Shown: positions 11,342 to 41,130 of the stretch, piece after piece | Position numbering within the stretch: the stretch's first letter is position 1 | Layout: each line of letters begins with the position of its first letter | Assembly: GCF_003334315.1 (NCBI RefSeq) | Contig: NZ_QOWR01000030.1 | Reading direction: 5' to 3' (one strand) | DNA length: 51,845 nucleotides | Source of the DNA: Escherichia coli | Lineage (GTDB): Bacteria; Pseudomonadota; Gammaproteobacteria; Enterobacterales; Enterobacteriaceae | Program-made: the position numbers and the translations under genes | The notes under the pieces: generated by a model | The model's database searches: none | Told to the model about the DNA's origin: nothing | Seen by the model: only the letters and a program-made list of their open reading frames with translations

Positions 11342-12151
11342 TTATAGGCCTCTGAATACCTCAGAAAGATTGAATTTTTTATAGTCCCTCTCTTGAATAT
11401 TTCCATTTGATATCAATCGATTCATCTCTTCAACAAAATAATTTATATCATCACACTTGTTATTATCCGGAAGATCTGAGTAGTTATAATTCCACCATTT
11501 TATTCTCAACAGTTCATCAATAACATTTGAATCAAACCTAAATCTGATTATTTTTGCAGGAACTCCTGCAACTATGGCATATGGGGGCACATCTTTGGTA
11601 ACAACGGAATTGGCAGCAATAACAGCACCATCACCTATTGCGATGCCACCTTTCAATACAACATCATTTCCTATCCAGACATCATTTCCTATAATCGGAT
11701 TTTCAGGTTTGATAATGAATGGTTTCAATGTCCAGCTACGTTCAAATTCACTCATAGCAAACTTATCAAATTCACCGTTATAAGTCATCATGTGAGTAGT
11801 AAAACGATTCAAAGGATGATTTTCACCCATTATTTTTACATTTGATGCAATACTACAAAATCGACCTATACGTATATTCCCTGAAAAATGGCAGGTCGGA
11901 AATGAAAAAGCGCCGACACTGGAGAAATTTTTCACAGGCATTGTTGAATATTCTTCAGCAATAACATTATCTTCAATTGTTATCTTGTCACCTTTTGAGA
12001 AAAGAAATAAATTCCTTTCTTTATACGACTTCTTCCCCTTATGATTTAAAAAGATTTTATTATCCATACAAAACTCAAAGTGTTTTTTCGTCCATCTGAA
12101 GGTAAGGGTTTTATTTTTATCTTCCGTGAATTTGTACAATTGAACTTTCAT
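11342..12151 (-). CDS. hexapeptide-repeat xenobiotic acetyltransferase (XAT class, Vat/CatB-like), 269 aa
   Basis: ATG-initiated ORF; C-terminal IGNDVWIGNDVVLKGGIAIGDGAVIAANSVVTKDVPPYAIVAGVPAKIIRFRFD...IKWWNYNY closely parallels the VatD/CatB hexapeptide core and KWWNW tail; ENHPLNRF lies at the catalytic-His loop position; gene and flanks are strongly AT-rich. Confidence 0.75.
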   Translation of the reverse strand: MKVQLYKFTEDKNKTLTFRWTKKHFEFCMDNKIFLNHKGKKSYKERNLFLFSKGDKITIEDNVIAEEYSTMPVKNFSSVGAFSFPTCHFSGNIRIGRFCSIASNVKIMGENHPLNRFTTHMMTYNGEFDKFAMSEFERSWTLKPFIIKPENPIIGNDVWIGNDVVLKGGIAIGDGAVIAANSVVTKDVPPYAIVAGVPAKIIRFRFDSNVIDELLRIKWWNYNYSDLPDNNKCDDINYFVEEMNRLISNGNIQERDYKKFNLSEVFRGL

Positions 12152-24467: not shown

Positions 24468-26181
24468 CGCCCTGAAGGACGTGGATCCCTGCTACGTTCA
24501 GGCTGTCGCCTGAATCATTTCGGTGGGTTCCTGCTTCAACGGGCGGCCTGACTGCACCATCTCTCCACAGGCAAGAACGGCGTGCCCCGCCGCTAAAATG
24601 TTGCGAGCGCCATTTACATCGGCGTTCGCTGTATATCCACATACCTGGCATCTGAATTTACTTTGTGACAGGCGGTTCTCTTTCGCTGTATGACCACAGT
24701 ACGCGCAACGCTGGCTTGTATACGCTGGCGGAACAGCAAGCACCTGACCGCCACGCCAGAGCTGCTTGTACGCAAGCTGGCGGCGCATTTCATACCAGCC
24801 CTGATCCAGTATCGAACGGTTTAAACCTGATTTTGCCCGGACATTGCGCCCCGGCTGGCTGACCGTACCCGCTGCTGACTTTGACATGTTGCTGACCTTC
24901 AAATCCTCAATGACTATCATTGCGTGGTTTTTGCTGACGGCCGTTGTGACTTTGTGAAGGTAGTCCCTGCGGATATTTGCGATACAGGAATGCAGTCGCT
25001 GTATTTTGCGTTTCTGCTTTTGCCAGTTGTTGCTGAATTTGACCTTGCGGCTTAACTGTCGCTGAAGTCTCGCCAGCTTCTTCTGGTTTTTCTGAAAACT
25101 GTTTACAGGCTCAAAGACTGTGCCATCTGACAGCGTGGCGAGTTTAGCCACGCCAGCATCCAGCCCGACCATTGATGCTGAAGGGTGAACCGGAGTTGAT
25201 ACTTCACTTTCTGTCTGAATACTGATGTACCACTTACCGCAGGACTGGCTGACAGTGACATTTTTCACAACACCCGTGACCTGACGGCTGTTCCGGTAGC
25301 GCATCCAGCCCAGTTTCGGCAGAAAAATACGGCTGTTTTCCTGATCGAGCTTAACGCCCTGCGGGTAGCGGAATGCATCATTCTGTCCCCGCTTTTTGAA
25401 TCGGGGAAAAGCAGCCCGCTTCCGGAAGAAGTTTTTGTAAGCCCGCTCAAGGTCTTTCAGTGACTGTTGCAATGGCTGTGAGGGAGAATCTTTAAGCCAT
25501 TGCGTTTCAGTGGCATTTTTCCACTCAACCAGCCAGGAAGCCATTTTCCCGTAAGGGATGTATTTATTACCGGCCTCATGATTCTCATTCTGACGTGCCA
25601 GAGCACGATTGAAAACGAAACGACATGCGCCTGCGAAGCGCCTCATTTCACACTCCTGTTGACCACCTGGTCTTAACTGGAATTTAAATGCCTGTAATCG
25701 TTTCACAGGTCAAATGATACTTTGGTCTGTGAAAAAAGAAACCGATATCCGGCGTGGAAGGCATTGTGTTTTCCTGATGCATGTTCACCTGCTCTTTGTC
25801 ACCAGATACCGACGCCAGATTTTTGACCATGACGCGACAGAAAAACTACGCACTTACTTTTCAAATGTATGTGCTGATTTTGAAGCTGAACTGGTTGAAA
25901 TGGATGGCGAACCAGATCACGTCCATTTGTTAATTAACTATCCTCCCAAACTGGCGATATCCAGTCTGGTAAACAGCCTCAAAGGCGTATCGGGTAGGTG
26001 ACTGCGACGAGATCGACCAGATATTGCAGTCAGGTATTACTACAAAGGCGTTTTGTGGAGTCCTGGCTATTTTGCCAGTAGCTGCGGAGGTGCGCCAATA
26101 TCCGTCATTCGCCAATACATTGAACAACAGCAAACACCTGGTCAGGTGGAAAACCGCGCCTTATATCCCCGCCCTGAAGGA
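24468..26181. mobile_element. IS609 (IS200/IS605 family) insertion sequence, divergent tnpB and tnpA
   Basis: TnpB and Y1-transposase ORFs back to back; bracketed by a 12-bp direct repeat cgccctgaagga at 24468..24479 and 26170..26181; exact ends not determined. Confidence 0.65.
24498..25706 (-). CDS. insQ: IS609 TnpB (OrfB, RuvC-like nuclease with zinc finger), 402 aa from GTG (382 aa from internal ATG)
   Basis: ORF track; N-terminal QAFKFQLRP...CRFVFN motif; RuvC-I GLDAGV, RuvC-II VIEDL, zinc finger CAYCGH...CQVCGY, Ruv[13 protein letters not shown]. Confidence 0.85.
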
Positions 26182-27802: not shown

Positions 27803-28791
27803 TCTTTGTCCTCTGCTTTCATTAAAACGGCGCGCTCGGTTCTGACTAACAATTTTCCCTGCATCAGAAGCGCAAAAGTACGGATGAGCAGTATTGCAAT
27901 AATAAAATTGGTAAAGATAAACAGCGGCACCGCCAGCGTATGGAAAAATCCATTATCGCTGCCACTCCCCAGATGCAAACCGGTGGTTGCCAGTGCAGAT
28001 ACGCCGAACGAGAAACTCCAGAATGAAGCATTAAATGGCTGGGAGAGATACCATGGCATCAGACGTAGCATAAACAGCAGTTGCAGCAGTCCATAACCGA
28101 AAAGCATTTTCGCCAGCGTGTCACCCTCGCCGCCGTTGACGCTCAGCCAGGCACTACAGGCCACCAGCGCAGGAGCGAGCTGAATGCCGAGTGATGTCCG
28201 CAGTGCCGTGGGTAATTCTCCCGAACTGCGCAGACGCTGCAAGATCACCGGTTCAAGGCTTAGCCATGAGAAAACGCCTGCGCCTAAAAACACCAGACCG
28301 GCGTCGGTGTAGCCCAACGCACCACAGGCCATTGCGCTGATAAAGTTGTTGGCAACTGTCGGCAGATACAGTCCAGGCGTGGTAGCTTCTTCAGGGTGAG
28401 ATCCGCGCCATAATCCCGCAGTTTGCCAGGCGGCATAAGCCAACTGAACCGCGACACCAAAACTGAACAGGCACACCGCCAGTGGGCGAAACCACGGAAC
28501 AAAACCAATCGCCACCAGCATCGTCGTTGCCGGAAACAAACTCACAAAACTGCTCAGCACTGGATGGCGAACTTCCGCCAGCACGCTATGCGGAAAGCGT
28601 ATGAGTCGGGTAATAAATGCGCTAGTCAATAATCCCCAGATGATCATCGCCAGAATCACCAGCCCATCCCCTAACCAGTGGCTGACCTGCCAAACCTGGC
28701 TGGCATAGCGCCAGGCAAATCCCATCCCTATCGTCCCCAAGACAATACCAAAGTAGCCTGCCGGCAAATTGAGCACTTTATCGCTCTGCAT
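27799..28791 (-). CDS. tehA: tellurite-resistance / C4-dicarboxylate-type membrane protein TehA, 330 aa
   Basis: ORF 27799..28899 trimmed to ATG at 28791 ([15 protein letters not shown]...); overlaps tehB start by 4 bp. Confidence 0.9.
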
Positions 28792-28914
28792 CTTCTTACT
28801 CATTTTGTTTAATTTATAAAGTATATTTGAAATGCATTTTATGGAATTTTCTTGAGCATAGCCAGAGCCGCAGAATTTGCTACGGTTATAGTAAGTCACC
28901 TGTGGGAAAACGCT

Positions 28915-29895
28915 ATGCGCAAATATCGTCTAAGTGAAGAACAGCGAGCCTTTAGTTATCAGGAAGATGGCACTAAAAAAAGTGTGTTATTACGGCAGAT
29001 TATCGCCATTAGCGATTTTAACGATGTGATAGCAGGAACCGCTGGCGGCTGGATCGATCGCGAAACGGTGTTAGCACAGGAAGGAAATTGCTGGATTTAC
29101 GACCAGAATGCTATTGCGTTCGGCGGAACGGTGATTTCCGGTAATACGCGTATCACCGGCACCAGCGTGCTGTGGGGAGAGGTTTACGCAACGGATAACG
29201 TCTGGATCGATAATAGTGAAATCAGCCAGGGTGCACATATAAGTGACAGTGTCACCATTCGTGGTTCATTAGTTTGCGGTCAATGTAGAATATTTGGTCA
29301 CGCCTTAATTGATCAACATTCTATGATCGTCGCCACACAAGGCTTAACGCCCGACCATCAACTCCTGCTACAAATTTATGATCGCGCAAGGGTTAGCGCC
29401 TCGCGTATTGTTCACCAGGCACAAATTTATGGCGATGCCGTCGTCCGGTATGCTTTTATTGAACATCGCGCCGAAGTTTTTGATTTTGCCAGTGTTGAAG
29501 GTAATGAAGAGAACAACATCTGGCTATGCGATTGCGCTAAAGTTTACGGTCACGCGCAGGTGAAAGCTGGCATAGAAGAAGATGCCATTCCGACGATTCA
29601 TTACAGTTCACAGGTGGCGGAATATGCCATTGTGGAAGGTAATTGTGTGTTAAAACATCATGTTTTGATTGGCGGAAATGCCGTGGTACGTGGCGGACCG
29701 ATTCTGCTCGACGAGCACGTTGTAATACAAGGTGAGAGCCGTATTACAGGTGCGGTGATAATTGAAAACCATGTGGAGTTAACCGACCACGCCGTCGTTG
29801 AAGCCTTTGATGGCGACACGGTTCATGTCCGTGGTCCAAAAGTCATTAACGGCGAGGAGCGCATTACGCGAACGCCGCTGGCAGGGTTATTGTGA
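28915..29895 (+). CDS. ydcK: uncharacterised hexapeptide/beta-helix repeat protein, 326 aa
   Basis: ORF 28852..29895 trimmed to ATG at 28915 ([13 protein letters not shown]...). Confidence 0.85.
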
Positions 29896-30426
29896 ATCGA
29901 TAATACGCGCGTATAAGTTCACATCATCATAGGCATCATTCAGGAACTCAGCCTGTTTCAGGCAACCTTCAAGGATAAAACCATTGCGCAAAGCGACCTG
30001 GTTGCTTTGCGGATTGTCCACCCGACATTTGATCACGAAGCGTCTAAGTTCACCAGACTGGGCGTAATGATGAATCAGTGCCTGCAGCGCCTGAGAAATG
30101 ATCCCCTGCCCCTGATGAGATTCGTCCAGCCAGTAGCCGATTTCAGCGGTTTTATTCAGTGGTTCAATTCGATTAAACGAGATAACGCCGATAAGTTCAT
30201 CTTCTTTGAAAATCATGAACATTTTGGCATAGCCGCGTTGATGCAACATCACATTACCCTGCACCGTTTTTCGCGTGTCCTCTTCACTCTGAACGAACTG
30301 CGGCCAGTTTAGCGACTGCTGTAACCAGGTTTTATTTTTACAGATTAACTGATAAAGAGGAGTGACGTGATTTTCTGCAACAGCATGTAATTCAAGTGAT
30401 TCACTTACTTTTATCGTTTCAGTCAT
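29887..30426 (-). CDS. rimL: ribosomal protein L7/L12 serine N-acetyltransferase (GNAT), 179 aa
   Basis: ORF 29887..30441 trimmed to ATG at 30426 ([16 protein letters not shown]...). Confidence 0.9.
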
Positions 30427-30488
30427 CTTATCTCCAGTCAATCCATGCAGTTGTTAAAAAAGCCGCCTGGCTGGCGGCTTAGGAAAGT

Positions 30489-30713
30489 TTACACCTCTTT
30501 GACGCTCTCCTGCTGCAGGATTTTGAGCATCTCATCTTTTAACTGTAGCTTTTGTTTTTTCATGCGGACCACTTCCGCATTGTACCCTCGACCATCGGAA
30601 CCTTCCTTTCTGGCAATTTCATGATCAAGTTTATTGTGTTTATCGAACAAGGACATAAAGCGAGGATTTTCGTTTTTCAGACGGGATATTAAATCTCGAT
30701 ATTCTGGAAACAT
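30489..30713 (-). CDS. ydcH: small DUF465-type protein, 74 aa
   Basis: ORF 30489..30719 trimmed to ATG at 30713 (MFPEYRDLISRLKNENPRF...). Confidence 0.8.
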   Translation of the reverse strand: MFPEYRDLISRLKNENPRFMSLFDKHNKLDHEIARKEGSDGRGYNAEVVRMKKQKLQLKDEMLKILQQESVKEV

Positions 30714-30851
30714 ACGCACTCCCTGTTAGTGGCTGACAAGGTGTATCTGAAATACACACCATCAGATTACTCATTTAACTTAGGGAAAAATGCGAGCGGG
30801 ATCGTGTTTAACCAGACGGCACCTCCCGAAGAAGGTGCCGAAGAAAAACGA

Positions 30852-32507
30852 TTAACTCATCACGCGGTCGTCAACATACTGACGTTTATCCGGCGCTGGC
30901 GGGAAATACTGATACAGCCATGTTTCACTGATAGCATCCCCCTGACAACGCAGATACATCCGCATATCGACCGGATCAGTGGAGTCCGACGTCGGATACC
31001 AGTCAAACTGAATACGATAACCATCAATGGGTTCAATATAGAGAATTTCGATTTGCTTCGCTTCCCCACTGGAAAGCGTAATCACCGGCTCAATGCCTTT
31101 TGGCGCGGCAGCTTTCAGATCACCACCAACGAAATCGACGGCAAAACGACGTGCCCATTTTTCGGGATAGTGTTCACCTGGTGCCCAACCTTCCGGGAAA
31201 CCACCCATGCCGGTACGCGTCGCCATAACGCGCGCTAATGGGCAATGAACAGGCGGTTGCGCACTCCAGTACAGACGATACTGGAATGCAAATTCATCAC
31301 CCGCTTTTACAGCTTTTTCTGGCTGCCAGAAGCAGACAATGTTATCCAGCGTTTCACCCGTTGTTGGGATTTCCATCAGGCCGATGGTGCCCTTACCCCA
31401 CTTGTTACGCGGCTCCACCCACAGACTTGGGCGTTTGTTATACCAGCCCATAATGTCCTGATAATGGGAGAAATCACGATCCAGTTGCAATAAACCAAAC
31501 CCTTTCGGGTTGTTGTCGGTGTAAGCATTGAACTGCAATTTTTGCGGATTATTCAGCGGACGGCAAATCCACTCGCCGTTGCCCCGCCACATGGACAGAC
31601 GATCAGAGTCATGGATTTGCGGATGAATGGTGTCGCACATCCGGCGTTCATTAGTACCGCAGCTGAACATACTGGTCATCGGCGCAATGCCCAGCTGTTT
31701 AATGTCTTTGCGCGCATACAGGTGATTTTCCACATCCATAATCACCTGACTTTTCTCACAATGGATAGTGAACTTATAGGCACCAGTAATACTGGCGCTA
31801 TCGAGCAACGCATAAACGGTAAAGGTAGTTGCCCCCGGTTTTACCGTATCAAACCAGAAGGCGGTAAAGTCGGGGAACTCTTCTTTACTGTCGGTGTAAG
31901 TGTCGATCGCCAGGCCGCGGGCCGACAAACCGTATTGATATGTATCATCAACGGCGCGGAAATAACTCGCGCCGAGGAATGATACTACATCACGGCGCGC
32001 CAGTTCGGGGGCTTTAAACACGCGAAAACCGGCAAAGCCGAGATCGCTTTGCCCTTCTAATTGTTTTGTATCAACACCCGCATCGTTGTATTTGAACAAC
32101 TCCGGGCGAAAGTGAATTTCACGCGCCAGATGTGTTGCTGGATCAACAGAAAACATACGAACGCGGCGACGGAATCCCATTCCCATATGGAAGAACTGAG
32201 CGTCCAGTTGACGGTTCTCAACGTTATGCCAGAGCGATTTTTCGGCGTCGTATTGAATACTGTTATAAGCCTGCGGCGTCATTGTCGCCAGCGTGTCAGG
32301 TAACGGACGCGGCGCACCACGCCACGCTGTTTGCGCTAAGTCGTGCGCCATTGACTGTAGAATGGAGAAGTCAAAACGCTGGGTTTGCCCGTCGGCAATA
32401 TCAGAATCTGCCGCGAATGCCGCCTGAGAAAAAAGAGAAGCAATGCCGCTGGTACCGCACACGGCGGCCATAGCCATTGAACCTTTAATAAATCGTCTAC
32501 GATCCAT
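30852..32507 (-). CDS. opgD: osmoregulated periplasmic glucan biosynthesis protein D (Tat-exported), 551 aa
   Basis: ORF track; twin-arginine signal [16 protein letters not shown]. Confidence 0.95.
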
Positions 32508-37250: not shown

Positions 37251-37441
<191 letters not shown>

Positions 37442-37512
37442 GGGCAAGCGCGGGGATTTTCCCCGCGCATTTGACTAGCAGATTCATTTTCTCATGGCAC
37501 CCCTTTTACACT

Positions 37513-37686
37513 TCAGTTAGTGCATGTTTTTTTCGATGCACTAATAGAACCATCATTACAGACAAATTTGCCGCCTGCCGTACAGTGTGAGATCCCCCCT
37601 TTCGAACCAGAACAGGGTTTGCGCCCGGCATCGGCATAAAAGGAAACAAGCGTTCCCATAAACAAAATAAGTGCCAGTTTTTTCAT
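37513..37686 (-). CDS. ydcA: small secreted Cys-rich protein YdcA, 57 aa
   Basis: Reverse complement translates MKKLALILFMGTLVSFYADAGRKPCSGSKGGISHCTAGGKFVCNDGSISASKKTCTN; signal peptide. Confidence 0.7.
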   Translation of the reverse strand: MKKLALILFMGTLVSFYADAGRKPCSGSKGGISHCTAGGKFVCNDGSISASKKTCTN

Positions 37687-37856
37687 ATAACCTCCATGGT
37701 TTATCGAATCTTATGTTCGATTTGAACGTTATACGCTGGTTTATTTTGATACCGTTGATGAGATCAAAGATCGGGTGAATTGATTAAAAATAAGCCAGAT
37801 GGACGTATGGGCAAGGATTATGGTTTTATTTATCATACAAATAAATATAATAGGCG

Positions 37857-37920
37857 CTTCCGATGTAGACCCGTATTCTTCGCCTGTACCACGGGTCGGT
37901 TTTAGTACAGGCGTTTTCTT
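37857..37920 (+). ncRNA. rydC: Hfq-dependent small RNA RydC
   Basis: cttccgatgtagacccgtattcttcgcctgtaccacgggtcggttttagtacaggcgttttctt matches my recollection of RydC, including the terminal hairpin and U-run; sits between ydcA and cybB. Confidence 0.7.
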
Positions 37921-37930
37921 TAAATATCCT

Positions 37931-38461
37931 TCAGGAACGTTTACGCGGCATCATGCGTAGAAGTGTGTTGTCCTTCCAGAAATAGTGGTGTGCCAGTGCA
38001 GCCGCAGCGTGCAACCCGATGACAAAATATCCCAGATTCGCCAGCGTTTCATGCCACGACTTTAAGCTATCTACCCGTTCGAAATTGGCCTCTGAAGCGT
38101 AAGGCATCGTCAAACCAAACGCAAACCACGGGTTGCCCCGGTTATACATCATCACCAAACCAATCACTGGCAGCGCAATAAACAGGAGATAAATCACCAA
38201 ATGTCCCAAATGCGCCAGTCCCGTCATCATCGGTTTTGGCTTAGGTATAATCGGCGGGGTTGGGTATTTCAGCCTTAACAAAAGACGAACGACCATCAGC
38301 ACGAGAATTGAGATGCCACAGGAAACATGAATCATGTTGATGAGTGGCCGATCGCTACGTGGGAAGAAACCACGAAACTCCATTGCGCAATACGCTGCGA
38401 TAACCAGTAAAAAGACCAGCCAGTGAATGCTGATTTGTAACCTTGAATATTTATTTTCCAT
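37931..38461 (-). CDS. cybB: cytochrome b561, 176 aa
   Basis: ORF 37931..38497 trimmed to ATG at 38461 (MENKYSRLQISIHWLVFLL...). Confidence 0.9.
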   Translation of the reverse strand: MENKYSRLQISIHWLVFLLVIAAYCAMEFRGFFPRSDRPLINMIHVSCGISILVLMVVRLLLRLKYPTPPIIPKPKPMMTGLAHLGHLVIYLLFIALPVIGLVMMYNRGNPWFAFGLTMPYASEANFERVDSLKSWHETLANLGYFVIGLHAAAALAHHYFWKDNTLLRMMPRKRS

Positions 38462-38637
38462 AACATTTCCTGCTTTAACATAATTTTCCGTTAACATAAC
38501 GGGCTTTTCTCAAAATTTCATTAAATATTGTTCACCCGTTTTCAGTACGTTACGTTTCACTGTGAGAATGGAGATTGCCCATCCCGCCATCCTGGTCTAA
38601 GCCTGGAAAGGATCAATTTTCATCCGAACGTTCCTGA

Positions 38638-39642
<1,005 letters not shown>

Positions 39643-39690: not shown

Positions 39691-41130
39691 TTAAGACTGT
39701 AAATAAACCACCTGGGTCTGCAGATATTCATGCAAGCCATGTTTACCATCTGCGCCGCCAATACCGGATTTACGCCATCCGGCGTGGAAGCCTTGCATAG
39801 CTTCGAAGTTTTCACGGTTGATGTAAGTTTCACCAAACTTCAGCCCTTTAATGGCTTTCATCGCGACGTTCAGATTTTGGGTATAGATTGATGAGGTCAG
39901 GCCGTAATCACTGTCATTAGCCATTGAGATAGCATCTTCCAGCGTGTCAAATGCGACAACTGGCAGCACCGGGCCAAAGGTTTCCTCATGCATAATCGAC
40001 ATTTCCTGGCGAACATCCAGCAGCAATGTCGGCGGATAATAATATCCTTTCCCCTCTACCGCTTTGCCACCGAACGCCACTCTCGCCCCTTCTTCTACTG
40101 CGCGCGCCACTTTTTGCTCGACCCTTTCCAGCGCCGCGGCGTTAATCAACGGCCCCATCGCAATGTCGTTGCGTTCAGCGGGGTTACCAAATTGAACCGC
40201 CTGCATCGCTTCACCCAGCCGATTGACGAACTGATCATAAATGCCTTTCTGTACATAAACACGTTCTGCACAGTTACACACTTGCCCACTATTAATGACG
40301 CGTGAATCAACGATGGCTTTGACTGCCAGTTCAAGATCGGCATCGTCCATTACGATAGCTGGTGCTTTACCCCCCAATTCCAGACACACTTTGGTGATGT
40401 TTTTCGCCGCAGTCGCCATAATCTTCTCACCTGCAGAGACGCTGCCTGTCATACTGACCATTGCGACCTTTGGGTTACCCGCCAGTTCTTGCCCAACGGT
40501 TTCACCACGCCCCAGTACAAGGTTAAACACGCCGCGCGGAAGGCCTATTTCATCGACGATTTTGGCGAATGCAATCGCATTGTTTGGCGTAAATTCACTG
40601 GGTTTAATGACGATGGTATTACCAGTCAAAAGAGCGGGAGCCATTTTGCGGGCAATGAGGAAGAACGGGAAGTTCCACGGCAGAATGCCGGTAGTCACAC
40701 CAAGCGCACGTTTAAACAGAAGAATATTTTCTCCTGGACGATCGCTTTGAATAATCTCGCCCTCGTAACGCCGTGCCCACTCCGCCATGTAATCGATATA
40801 GTCGGCAGTAAAAGCCACTTCGACTTCAGCCAGCTGCTGGATCTTGCCCCCTTCTTCAACAATCAGCGCACTGATTTCACTGGCGCGTTCGCGGATCCCG
40901 GCGGAGATTTTGCGCAACCAACTGGCGCGTTCAATAGCAGGCAACGCTTCCCATTCTGGTTGTGCACGTTCTGCTGCATCGATTGCCTTACGGGCATCCT
41001 CGGCCTGACCATCGGGTATGCGGGAAATGACAGCCTCTGTAGCAGGGTTTACCACATCAATCCATGCGTCTCCACGCCAGGTAACAAACTGTCCATCGAT
41101 ATACATAGGATGTTGAACGGGTACTGACAT
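39691..41130 (-). CDS. aldA: lactaldehyde (glycolaldehyde) dehydrogenase, 479 aa
   Basis: ORF track; aldehyde dehydrogenase motifs; N-terminus [16 protein letters not shown]. Confidence 0.95.

Follow-up and report, generated by a model that had tools for sequence, protein, structure and literature searches.

Rho-dependent termination of untranslated or antisense RNA has reportedly been described by Peters et al. in 2012, and Ju et al. are said to have used SEnd-seq in 2019 to reveal bidirectional intrinsic terminators between convergent genes. Another closely related system is the excludon, a concept that stems from Listeria and has since been mapped in E. coli with ExcludonFinder (PMC12288877), and in which, by definition, overlap of the transcripts makes expression of the two genes mutually exclusive. 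Lastly, convergent gene pairs of prokaryotes may come to share their ends through movement of stop codons. Among the 663 overlapping adjacent gene pairs of E. coli, 75 are convergent (Huvet & Stumpf 2014, PMC4161906). Here we show how the ydcK/rimL junction of E. coli compares with each of these systems. The window, by which we mean the whole stretch of 51,845 nucleotides that was analysed (contig NZ_QOWR01000030.1 of assembly GCF_003334315.1), carries these two genes tail to tail, with the following features:

28915..29895, plus strand: ydcK coding sequence, 326 aa, a putative acyltransferase of the YdcK family with a left-handed beta-helix (ORF list, NCBIfam NF040481, RefSeq)
29893-29895, plus strand: ydcK stop codon TGA, in the tail GGG TTA TTG TGA (G L L stop)
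30426..29887, minus strand: rimL coding sequence, 179 aa, ribosomal protein L7/L12-serine N-acetyltransferase (ORF list, NCBIfam NF007539, RefSeq)
complement of 29887-29889, minus strand: rimL stop codon TAA, in the tail TCA CAA TAA (S Q stop)
29887..29895, both strands: tail-to-tail overlap of the two coding sequences, 9 bp, TTATTGTGA (window sequence)

Inspection of the sequence shows that the codon boundaries of both genes coincide within these 9 bp, which places Leu325, Leu326 and the stop of ydcK opposite the stop, Gln179 and Ser178 of rimL. Such an overlap is able to exist because the reverse complements of stop codons are themselves sense codons, with TTA and CTA encoding Leu and TCA encoding Ser. 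Both proteins match NCBIfam equivalog models end to end, with YdcK_fam covering residues 1-326 of 326 (NF040481, 556.7 bits) and the PRK10151 RimL model covering residues 1-179 of 179 (NF007539, 370.2 bits), and therefore the C-termini of ydcK and rimL are genuine. The same 9-bp overlap is found in the RefSeq annotation of K-12 BW25113, K-12 MG1655, CP53 and the most divergent E. coli junction that we found (90% identity over 80 nt), and a RefSeq record that is 100% identical to the window gives the same coordinates for ydcK. Over the 2.1 kb compared, the window is 100% identical to strain CP53 and 98.4% identical to K-12. Furthermore, the junction is carried by nearly all complete E. coli genomes (5413 of 5426). 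Five of these 5413 junction-bearing records are labelled plasmid, and may be mislabelled replicons or large chromosomal inserts. A preliminary description of this DNA had noted the 9-bp overlap of the ydcK and rimL stops, and this is borne out by the window sequence, the family models and RefSeq alike. As such, ydcK and rimL form a convergent overlapping gene pair, in which two genuine genes on opposite strands face each other and share bases in an overlap that is conserved.

How ordinary is this arrangement? Two of the 12 convergent pairs in the window annotation overlap, ydcK/rimL by 9 bp and hokB (plus strand) and yncP (minus strand) by 23 bp at 38865..38887. Moreover, ydcZ (plus strand, ending at 10157) and ydcY (minus strand, ending at 10158) converge with a spacer of 0 bp. 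The spacers of the remaining convergent pairs in the window are mostly 35-112 bp, with 401 bp between yncL and the gene for the CatB-related protein. Like other convergent overlapping pairs in prokaryotes, ydcK and rimL are opposite-strand neighbours that share a few 3'-terminal bases, with their stops opposite Leu and Ser codons and with a short overlap that is kept between related species. Between ydcK/rimL and that class we see no material difference, and a drift in length between 9, 6 and 4 bp fits the movement of stop codons. The ydcK/rimL overlap does not go beyond chance or background, and the arrangement is ordinary. It is also already known, being present in every E. coli RefSeq annotation, with the overlap of the transcripts catalogued as well. 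The locus needs no new explanation, and the outcome is useful as a negative.

The drift in overlap length becomes apparent across genera. Our comparative set consisted of one genome per species scanned with YdcK peptides, complemented by three look-ups of more distant YdcK homologues. Among the loci examined, the convergent ydcK/rimL junction is present in four genera and never has a spacer. The overlap measures 9 bp in Escherichia (7 lineages, including E. albertii, E. whittamii and the cryptic clades) and in Citrobacter (2 loci), 6 bp in Kluyvera (8 loci) and 4 bp (TTAA) in Salmonella (1 intact locus and 1 with a split rimL). One synonymous change of a ydcK Leu codon (TTG versus CTA/TTA) suffices for the difference between 9 and 6 bp, since a change of TTG to CTA or TTA turns the rimL Gln codon CAA into a stop. 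The C-terminal ends of both proteins vary by genus, with YdcK ending in ...PLAGLL, PLFGAL, PLVGSL, PLIGSL or PLAGLF, and RimL in ...IIDSQ, IVEPASE, IIDCASE or IIDAD; for Kluyvera georgiana, of which the sequence was read by hand, the RimL end is IIDNTRS. In Salmonella, locus L021 has an intact rimL of 179 aa. In a Salmonella enterica read-set assembly (L020, 3478..4034), rimL is split into ORFs of 70 and 95 aa and is an apparent pseudogene; the 4-bp end overlap with ydcK in this sample is unchanged. While the block of tehB-tehA, ydcK and rimL is conserved, the genes upstream of rimL vary: ydcH-opgD in E. coli, a peptidase M42-PTS cluster in Salmonella and C. amalonaticus, and an alanine racemase gene in another Citrobacter. 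Judged from sequence comparison, drift of stop codons within a compact junction would be predicted to leave such a pattern behind, and selection for the overlap would not be required. On the other hand, a spacer-less junction that is kept in four genera despite turnover of both tails could reflect selection for the arrangement rather than tolerance of it. A 237-bp contig with a coverage of 1.39 from an assembly of Alkalicoccobacillus porphyridii (L018) encodes a fragment that is 97% identical to residues 196-274 of E. coli YdcK. E. coli DNA contaminating that Bacillota assembly is almost certainly the source of this fragment.

Where do the two transcripts end? In Adams et al. 2021 (PMC7815308), 3' ends come from Term-seq under three conditions, and regions of Rho termination from DirectRNA-seq with and without bicyclomycin (BCM). 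One of these regions lies at MG1655 1499587 on the plus strand and was classed as antisense to ydcK (PMC7815308, supplementary file 2). Here, the reads upstream and downstream number 82 and 20 without BCM, and 137 and 144 with BCM, giving a Rho score of 4.31 (p=1.5e-8; PMC7815308). Through an exact 41-nt match, MG1655 1499587 corresponds to position 29777 of the window on the minus strand, and with the rimL stop ending at MG1655 1499477, the Rho region is located 110 nt beyond it. This position is approximate, as the regions were called in 800-nt windows and Rho-terminated ends are trimmed (PMC7815308). Two features follow on the rimL strand:

29777..29886, minus strand: shortest stretch by which the rimL transcript runs on past its stop codon, antisense to the 3' coding region of ydcK (published Rho region)
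29612..29786, minus strand: stretch of rimL-strand RNA located 101-275 nt past the rimL stop, with more C than G and so resembling in composition a Rho loading (rut) site

Counted in 50-nt windows, the surplus of C over G in the rimL-strand RNA amounts to +5 to +10 at 101-275 nt past the stop, whereas over the 100 nt directly after the stop it does not exceed 0 to +5. We infer that Rho uses the stretch at 29612..29786. Of the Rho termination regions, 51.5% are antisense to genes (PMC7815308). No Term-seq 3' end is reported for either rimL or ydcK in the three growth conditions, no Rho region was assigned to rimL, and for the ydcK strand neither a 3' end nor a Rho region is reported (PMC7815308). 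Reads past the rimL stop fall in a BCM-sensitive manner at 110 nt, in RNA that is antisense to the neighbouring gene and has a surplus of C over G that may suit Rho; in this, the rimL transcript does not differ materially from what is known of Rho-dependent termination of untranslated or antisense RNA.

These data bear on two statements of the preliminary description. It held that the transcripts must overlap, and this stands, given the absent spacer, the published Rho region and the listing of the pair by ExcludonFinder. It also proposed 3' end mapping as a check, much of which is met with in the published data: a discrete Term-seq end is found for neither gene, and past the rimL stop there is a BCM-sensitive Rho region. 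For full-length mRNAs, 3' ends located before the overlap are excluded in principle, because each mRNA contains its own stop codon.

We consider the junction most likely to be an ordinary and evolutionarily old tail-to-tail overlap of two real genes with Rho-limited readthrough, and not a dedicated regulatory device. The stop of each gene sits within the last codons of its partner. A polymerase transcribing rimL is expected to pass the UAA and to enter the antisense strand of ydcK, with neither a spacer nor an intrinsic terminator in its way. Release of the ribosome at the rimL UAA would leave the downstream RNA untranslated and C-rich, allowing Rho to load, and rimL transcription is then terminated by Rho roughly 100 nt or more downstream, as the published BCM data show (PMC7815308). 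Transcription of ydcK presumably ends likewise, inside the rimL antisense. When both genes are transcribed, complementarity between their mRNAs would extend for no less than 9 nt and probably for 100-300 nt, and polymerase collisions or cleavage of the duplex by RNase III are expected to be minor and incidental. The coding sequences overlap, the junction holds no canonical terminator, and the readthrough of rimL into the ydcK antisense is limited by Rho.

The amount of rimL RNA is relevant to how often the two transcripts meet. Reads for rimL are low, at 82 per 800 nt without BCM (PMC7815308). In a rifampicin time series, half-life changes by -4.76 log2 and intensity by -3.11 log2 at the rimL 5' end compared to the upstream ydcH segment, making the rimL segment about 9-fold weaker and much less stable than ydcH (PMC10349824). 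From these drops at its 5' end it follows that rimL mRNA is scarce and short-lived. As for the upstream gene itself, Term-seq places a 'primary' 3' end at MG1655 1498877 on the plus strand, 2 nt past the ydcH stop (PMC7815308). This maps to approximately position 30487 of the window on the minus strand, next to the ydcH coding sequence at 30489..30713, and the 62-bp spacer between ydcH and rimL has no obvious terminator. Given this 3' end past the ydcH stop, together with the sharp fall in half-life and abundance where rimL begins, the RNA of ydcH appears to be stable, abundant and separate from the weak, unstable rimL segment.

Does the overlap then serve to regulate? The pair rimL-ydcK is one of the 165 convergent excludons that, according to ExcludonFinder, recur in 50% or more of 58 RNA-seq sets of MG1655 (PMC12288877, Table 1), a list that also includes the window pairs trg-ydcI, rlhA-yncJ, patD-yncL and yncP-hokB. 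What ydcK/rimL shares with the excludon is the 3' transcript overlap, and it is by that overlap that it is listed as one; the overlap of its transcripts follows from that of the coding sequences, and owes nothing to an embedded terminator or to a 3' UTR of great length. This listing confirms transcript overlap and not regulation, because overlapping coding sequences meet the criterion as soon as both genes are detectably transcribed. A functional excludon would go further, in that selection would keep the spacer-less arrangement because transcription of one gene represses the other, either through collision of polymerases, through RNase III cleavage of the mRNA duplex, or both. Its place among the 165 would be in line with this reading, as would the observation that excludon pairs, taken as a class, exceed other pairs in synteny and are less often co-expressed in single cells (PMC12288877). 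Likewise, Escherichia, Citrobacter, Kluyvera and Salmonella all keep the overlap despite the differing genes upstream of rimL, and the rimL mRNA segment is unusually unstable (PMC10349824). However, the listing is automatic for overlapping coding sequences once both genes are transcribed, and neither the length nor the sequence of the overlap is conserved (4, 6 or 9 bp). Low rimL reads make for rare collisions, and the antisense reach into ydcK is limited because Rho ends transcription of rimL within about 100 nt. In the literature we found no anticorrelation, dsRNA or RNase III data specific to this pair; according to the authors of ExcludonFinder, validation of dsRNA with p19 is not feasible for convergent pairs (PMC12288877). 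A search of the literature on the function or regulation of ydcK returned nothing relevant, and the supplement of the SMRT-Cappable-seq paper has no entries for rimL, ydcK or ydcH. Taken together, we regard a functional excludon as unlikely. Interference between the rimL and ydcK transcripts, which the preliminary description had raised, is speculative and would likely be small, because of the low rimL read counts and the absence of a mapped 3' end or Rho region for ydcK, these being the sole bases for that estimate. Should such interference in cis be measurable, ydcK/rimL would be one more example among the approximately 165 proposed E. coli excludons, and if it were a true excludon, the acetylation of L12 by RimL would be linked to, or mutually exclusive with, whatever activity the acyltransferase-like YdcK has.

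A different possibility is that rimL has a weak intrinsic terminator of its own in the last codons of ydcK, in which case the overlap of the transcripts would be short (about 50 nt) and defined. A consensus scan of 28700-30900 returned neither a sigma-70 consensus promoter nor, close to the junction, any site resembling a terminator, and Rfam returned no matches at E<=1 for 29300-30800. Furthermore, folds of 151 nt on both strands indicate that RNA stability at the junction is not above that of shuffled sequence (z = -0.46 and -0.24). The statement that no terminator intervenes thus holds, both through the lack of intergenic DNA and through a consensus scan that returned no site. A permissive search up to 600 nt downstream of each stop, for hairpins with a U run behind them, yielded only weak candidates, the sole noteworthy one being on the rimL strand. 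It is listed here together with a hairpin from the folds of the ydcK strand:

29879-29848, minus strand: weak hairpin AGCGGCG...CGCCGUU, predicted at -15.2 kcal/mol, inside ydcK codons 311-324
29841-29838, minus strand: UUUU following this hairpin, 6 nt past the stem
29988..30010, plus strand: ydcK-strand hairpin, about 95-115 nt past the ydcK stop, inside the rimL antisense

The candidate on the rimL strand, in which the permissive scan found the hairpin to be followed by UGACUUUU, is the one that gives substance to an embedded terminator. A helix in the same register is present in most of the 18 orthologous loci aligned with 29816..29887 on the minus strand, spanning most of the genera, and in Kluyvera the hairpin in the ydcK tail consists of a 10-bp helix with two G-U pairs, which is perfect on the rimL strand only, as these pairs would be C-A mismatches on the ydcK strand. 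These G-U pairs may be a hint of strand specificity, although the overall covariation test lends it no support: over the 18 loci, covariation of the hairpin is not significant, with 72.7% of cells paired versus 70.7% in column shuffles. Columns 14 and 35 do change between C-G, G-C and A-U at two synonymous sites, but this sole compensatory pair is unpaired in 7 of the 18 sequences. The conserved bases of the hairpin are moreover explained by conserved residues of YdcK (Gly...Thr-Pro-Leu and Pro-Lys-Val). Its U run counts only 4 residues and is separated from the stem by 6 nt, the consensus scan made no call, no Term-seq 3' end is reported for rimL or ydcK in the three conditions, and the readthrough is sensitive to BCM (PMC7815308). 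With no significant covariation behind it, we rejected the hairpin at 29879-29838 as a demonstrated terminator, and think it quite improbable that rimL ends there by such means. A working terminator of this kind is not exclusive with the reading of Rho termination.

On the other strand, the hairpin at 29988-30010 was rejected as a terminator as well, as no U-tract follows it and its conservation is confined to close Escherichia, with none in Kluyvera, Salmonella or Citrobacter. Compared to bidirectional intrinsic terminators, ydcK/rimL has the convergent geometry and the shared 3' region in common. Unlike those, however, it comes without intergenic space, without a GC-rich hairpin flanked by A and U tracts, and without sharp 3' ends in the published Term-seq tables. 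Neither a GC-rich stem-loop directly followed by a U-tract nor a conserved structure with compensatory changes is found at the junction.

One could also imagine selection and structure acting together, with the junction being maintained since antisense read-through tunes each gene, and with the hairpin in the ydcK tail setting the depth to which rimL transcription invades; we deem this very unlikely. Least probable by far, and rejected, is an annotation artefact in which ydcK or rimL truly ends earlier, a reading for which we found no supporting point, seeing that stop codons are unambiguous, unlike start codons, that both stops are the first in-frame stops of their ORFs, that the full-length matches to curated family models reach the last residue of both proteins, and that the end positions of ydcK and rimL are conserved across genera.

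Elsewhere in the window, mobile or variable elements depart from the K-12-like gene order at 24498..26139, 37269..38638, 11342..12151, 40096..41081 and 1..67. The window holds insQ along with a truncated tnpA of IS200/IS605, a copy of IS150 beside hokB, and a gene for a CatB-related O-acetyltransferase between yncL and patD. It also carries a gap pseudogene, gapC-like and with a frameshift, and opens with the end of a VgrG gene.
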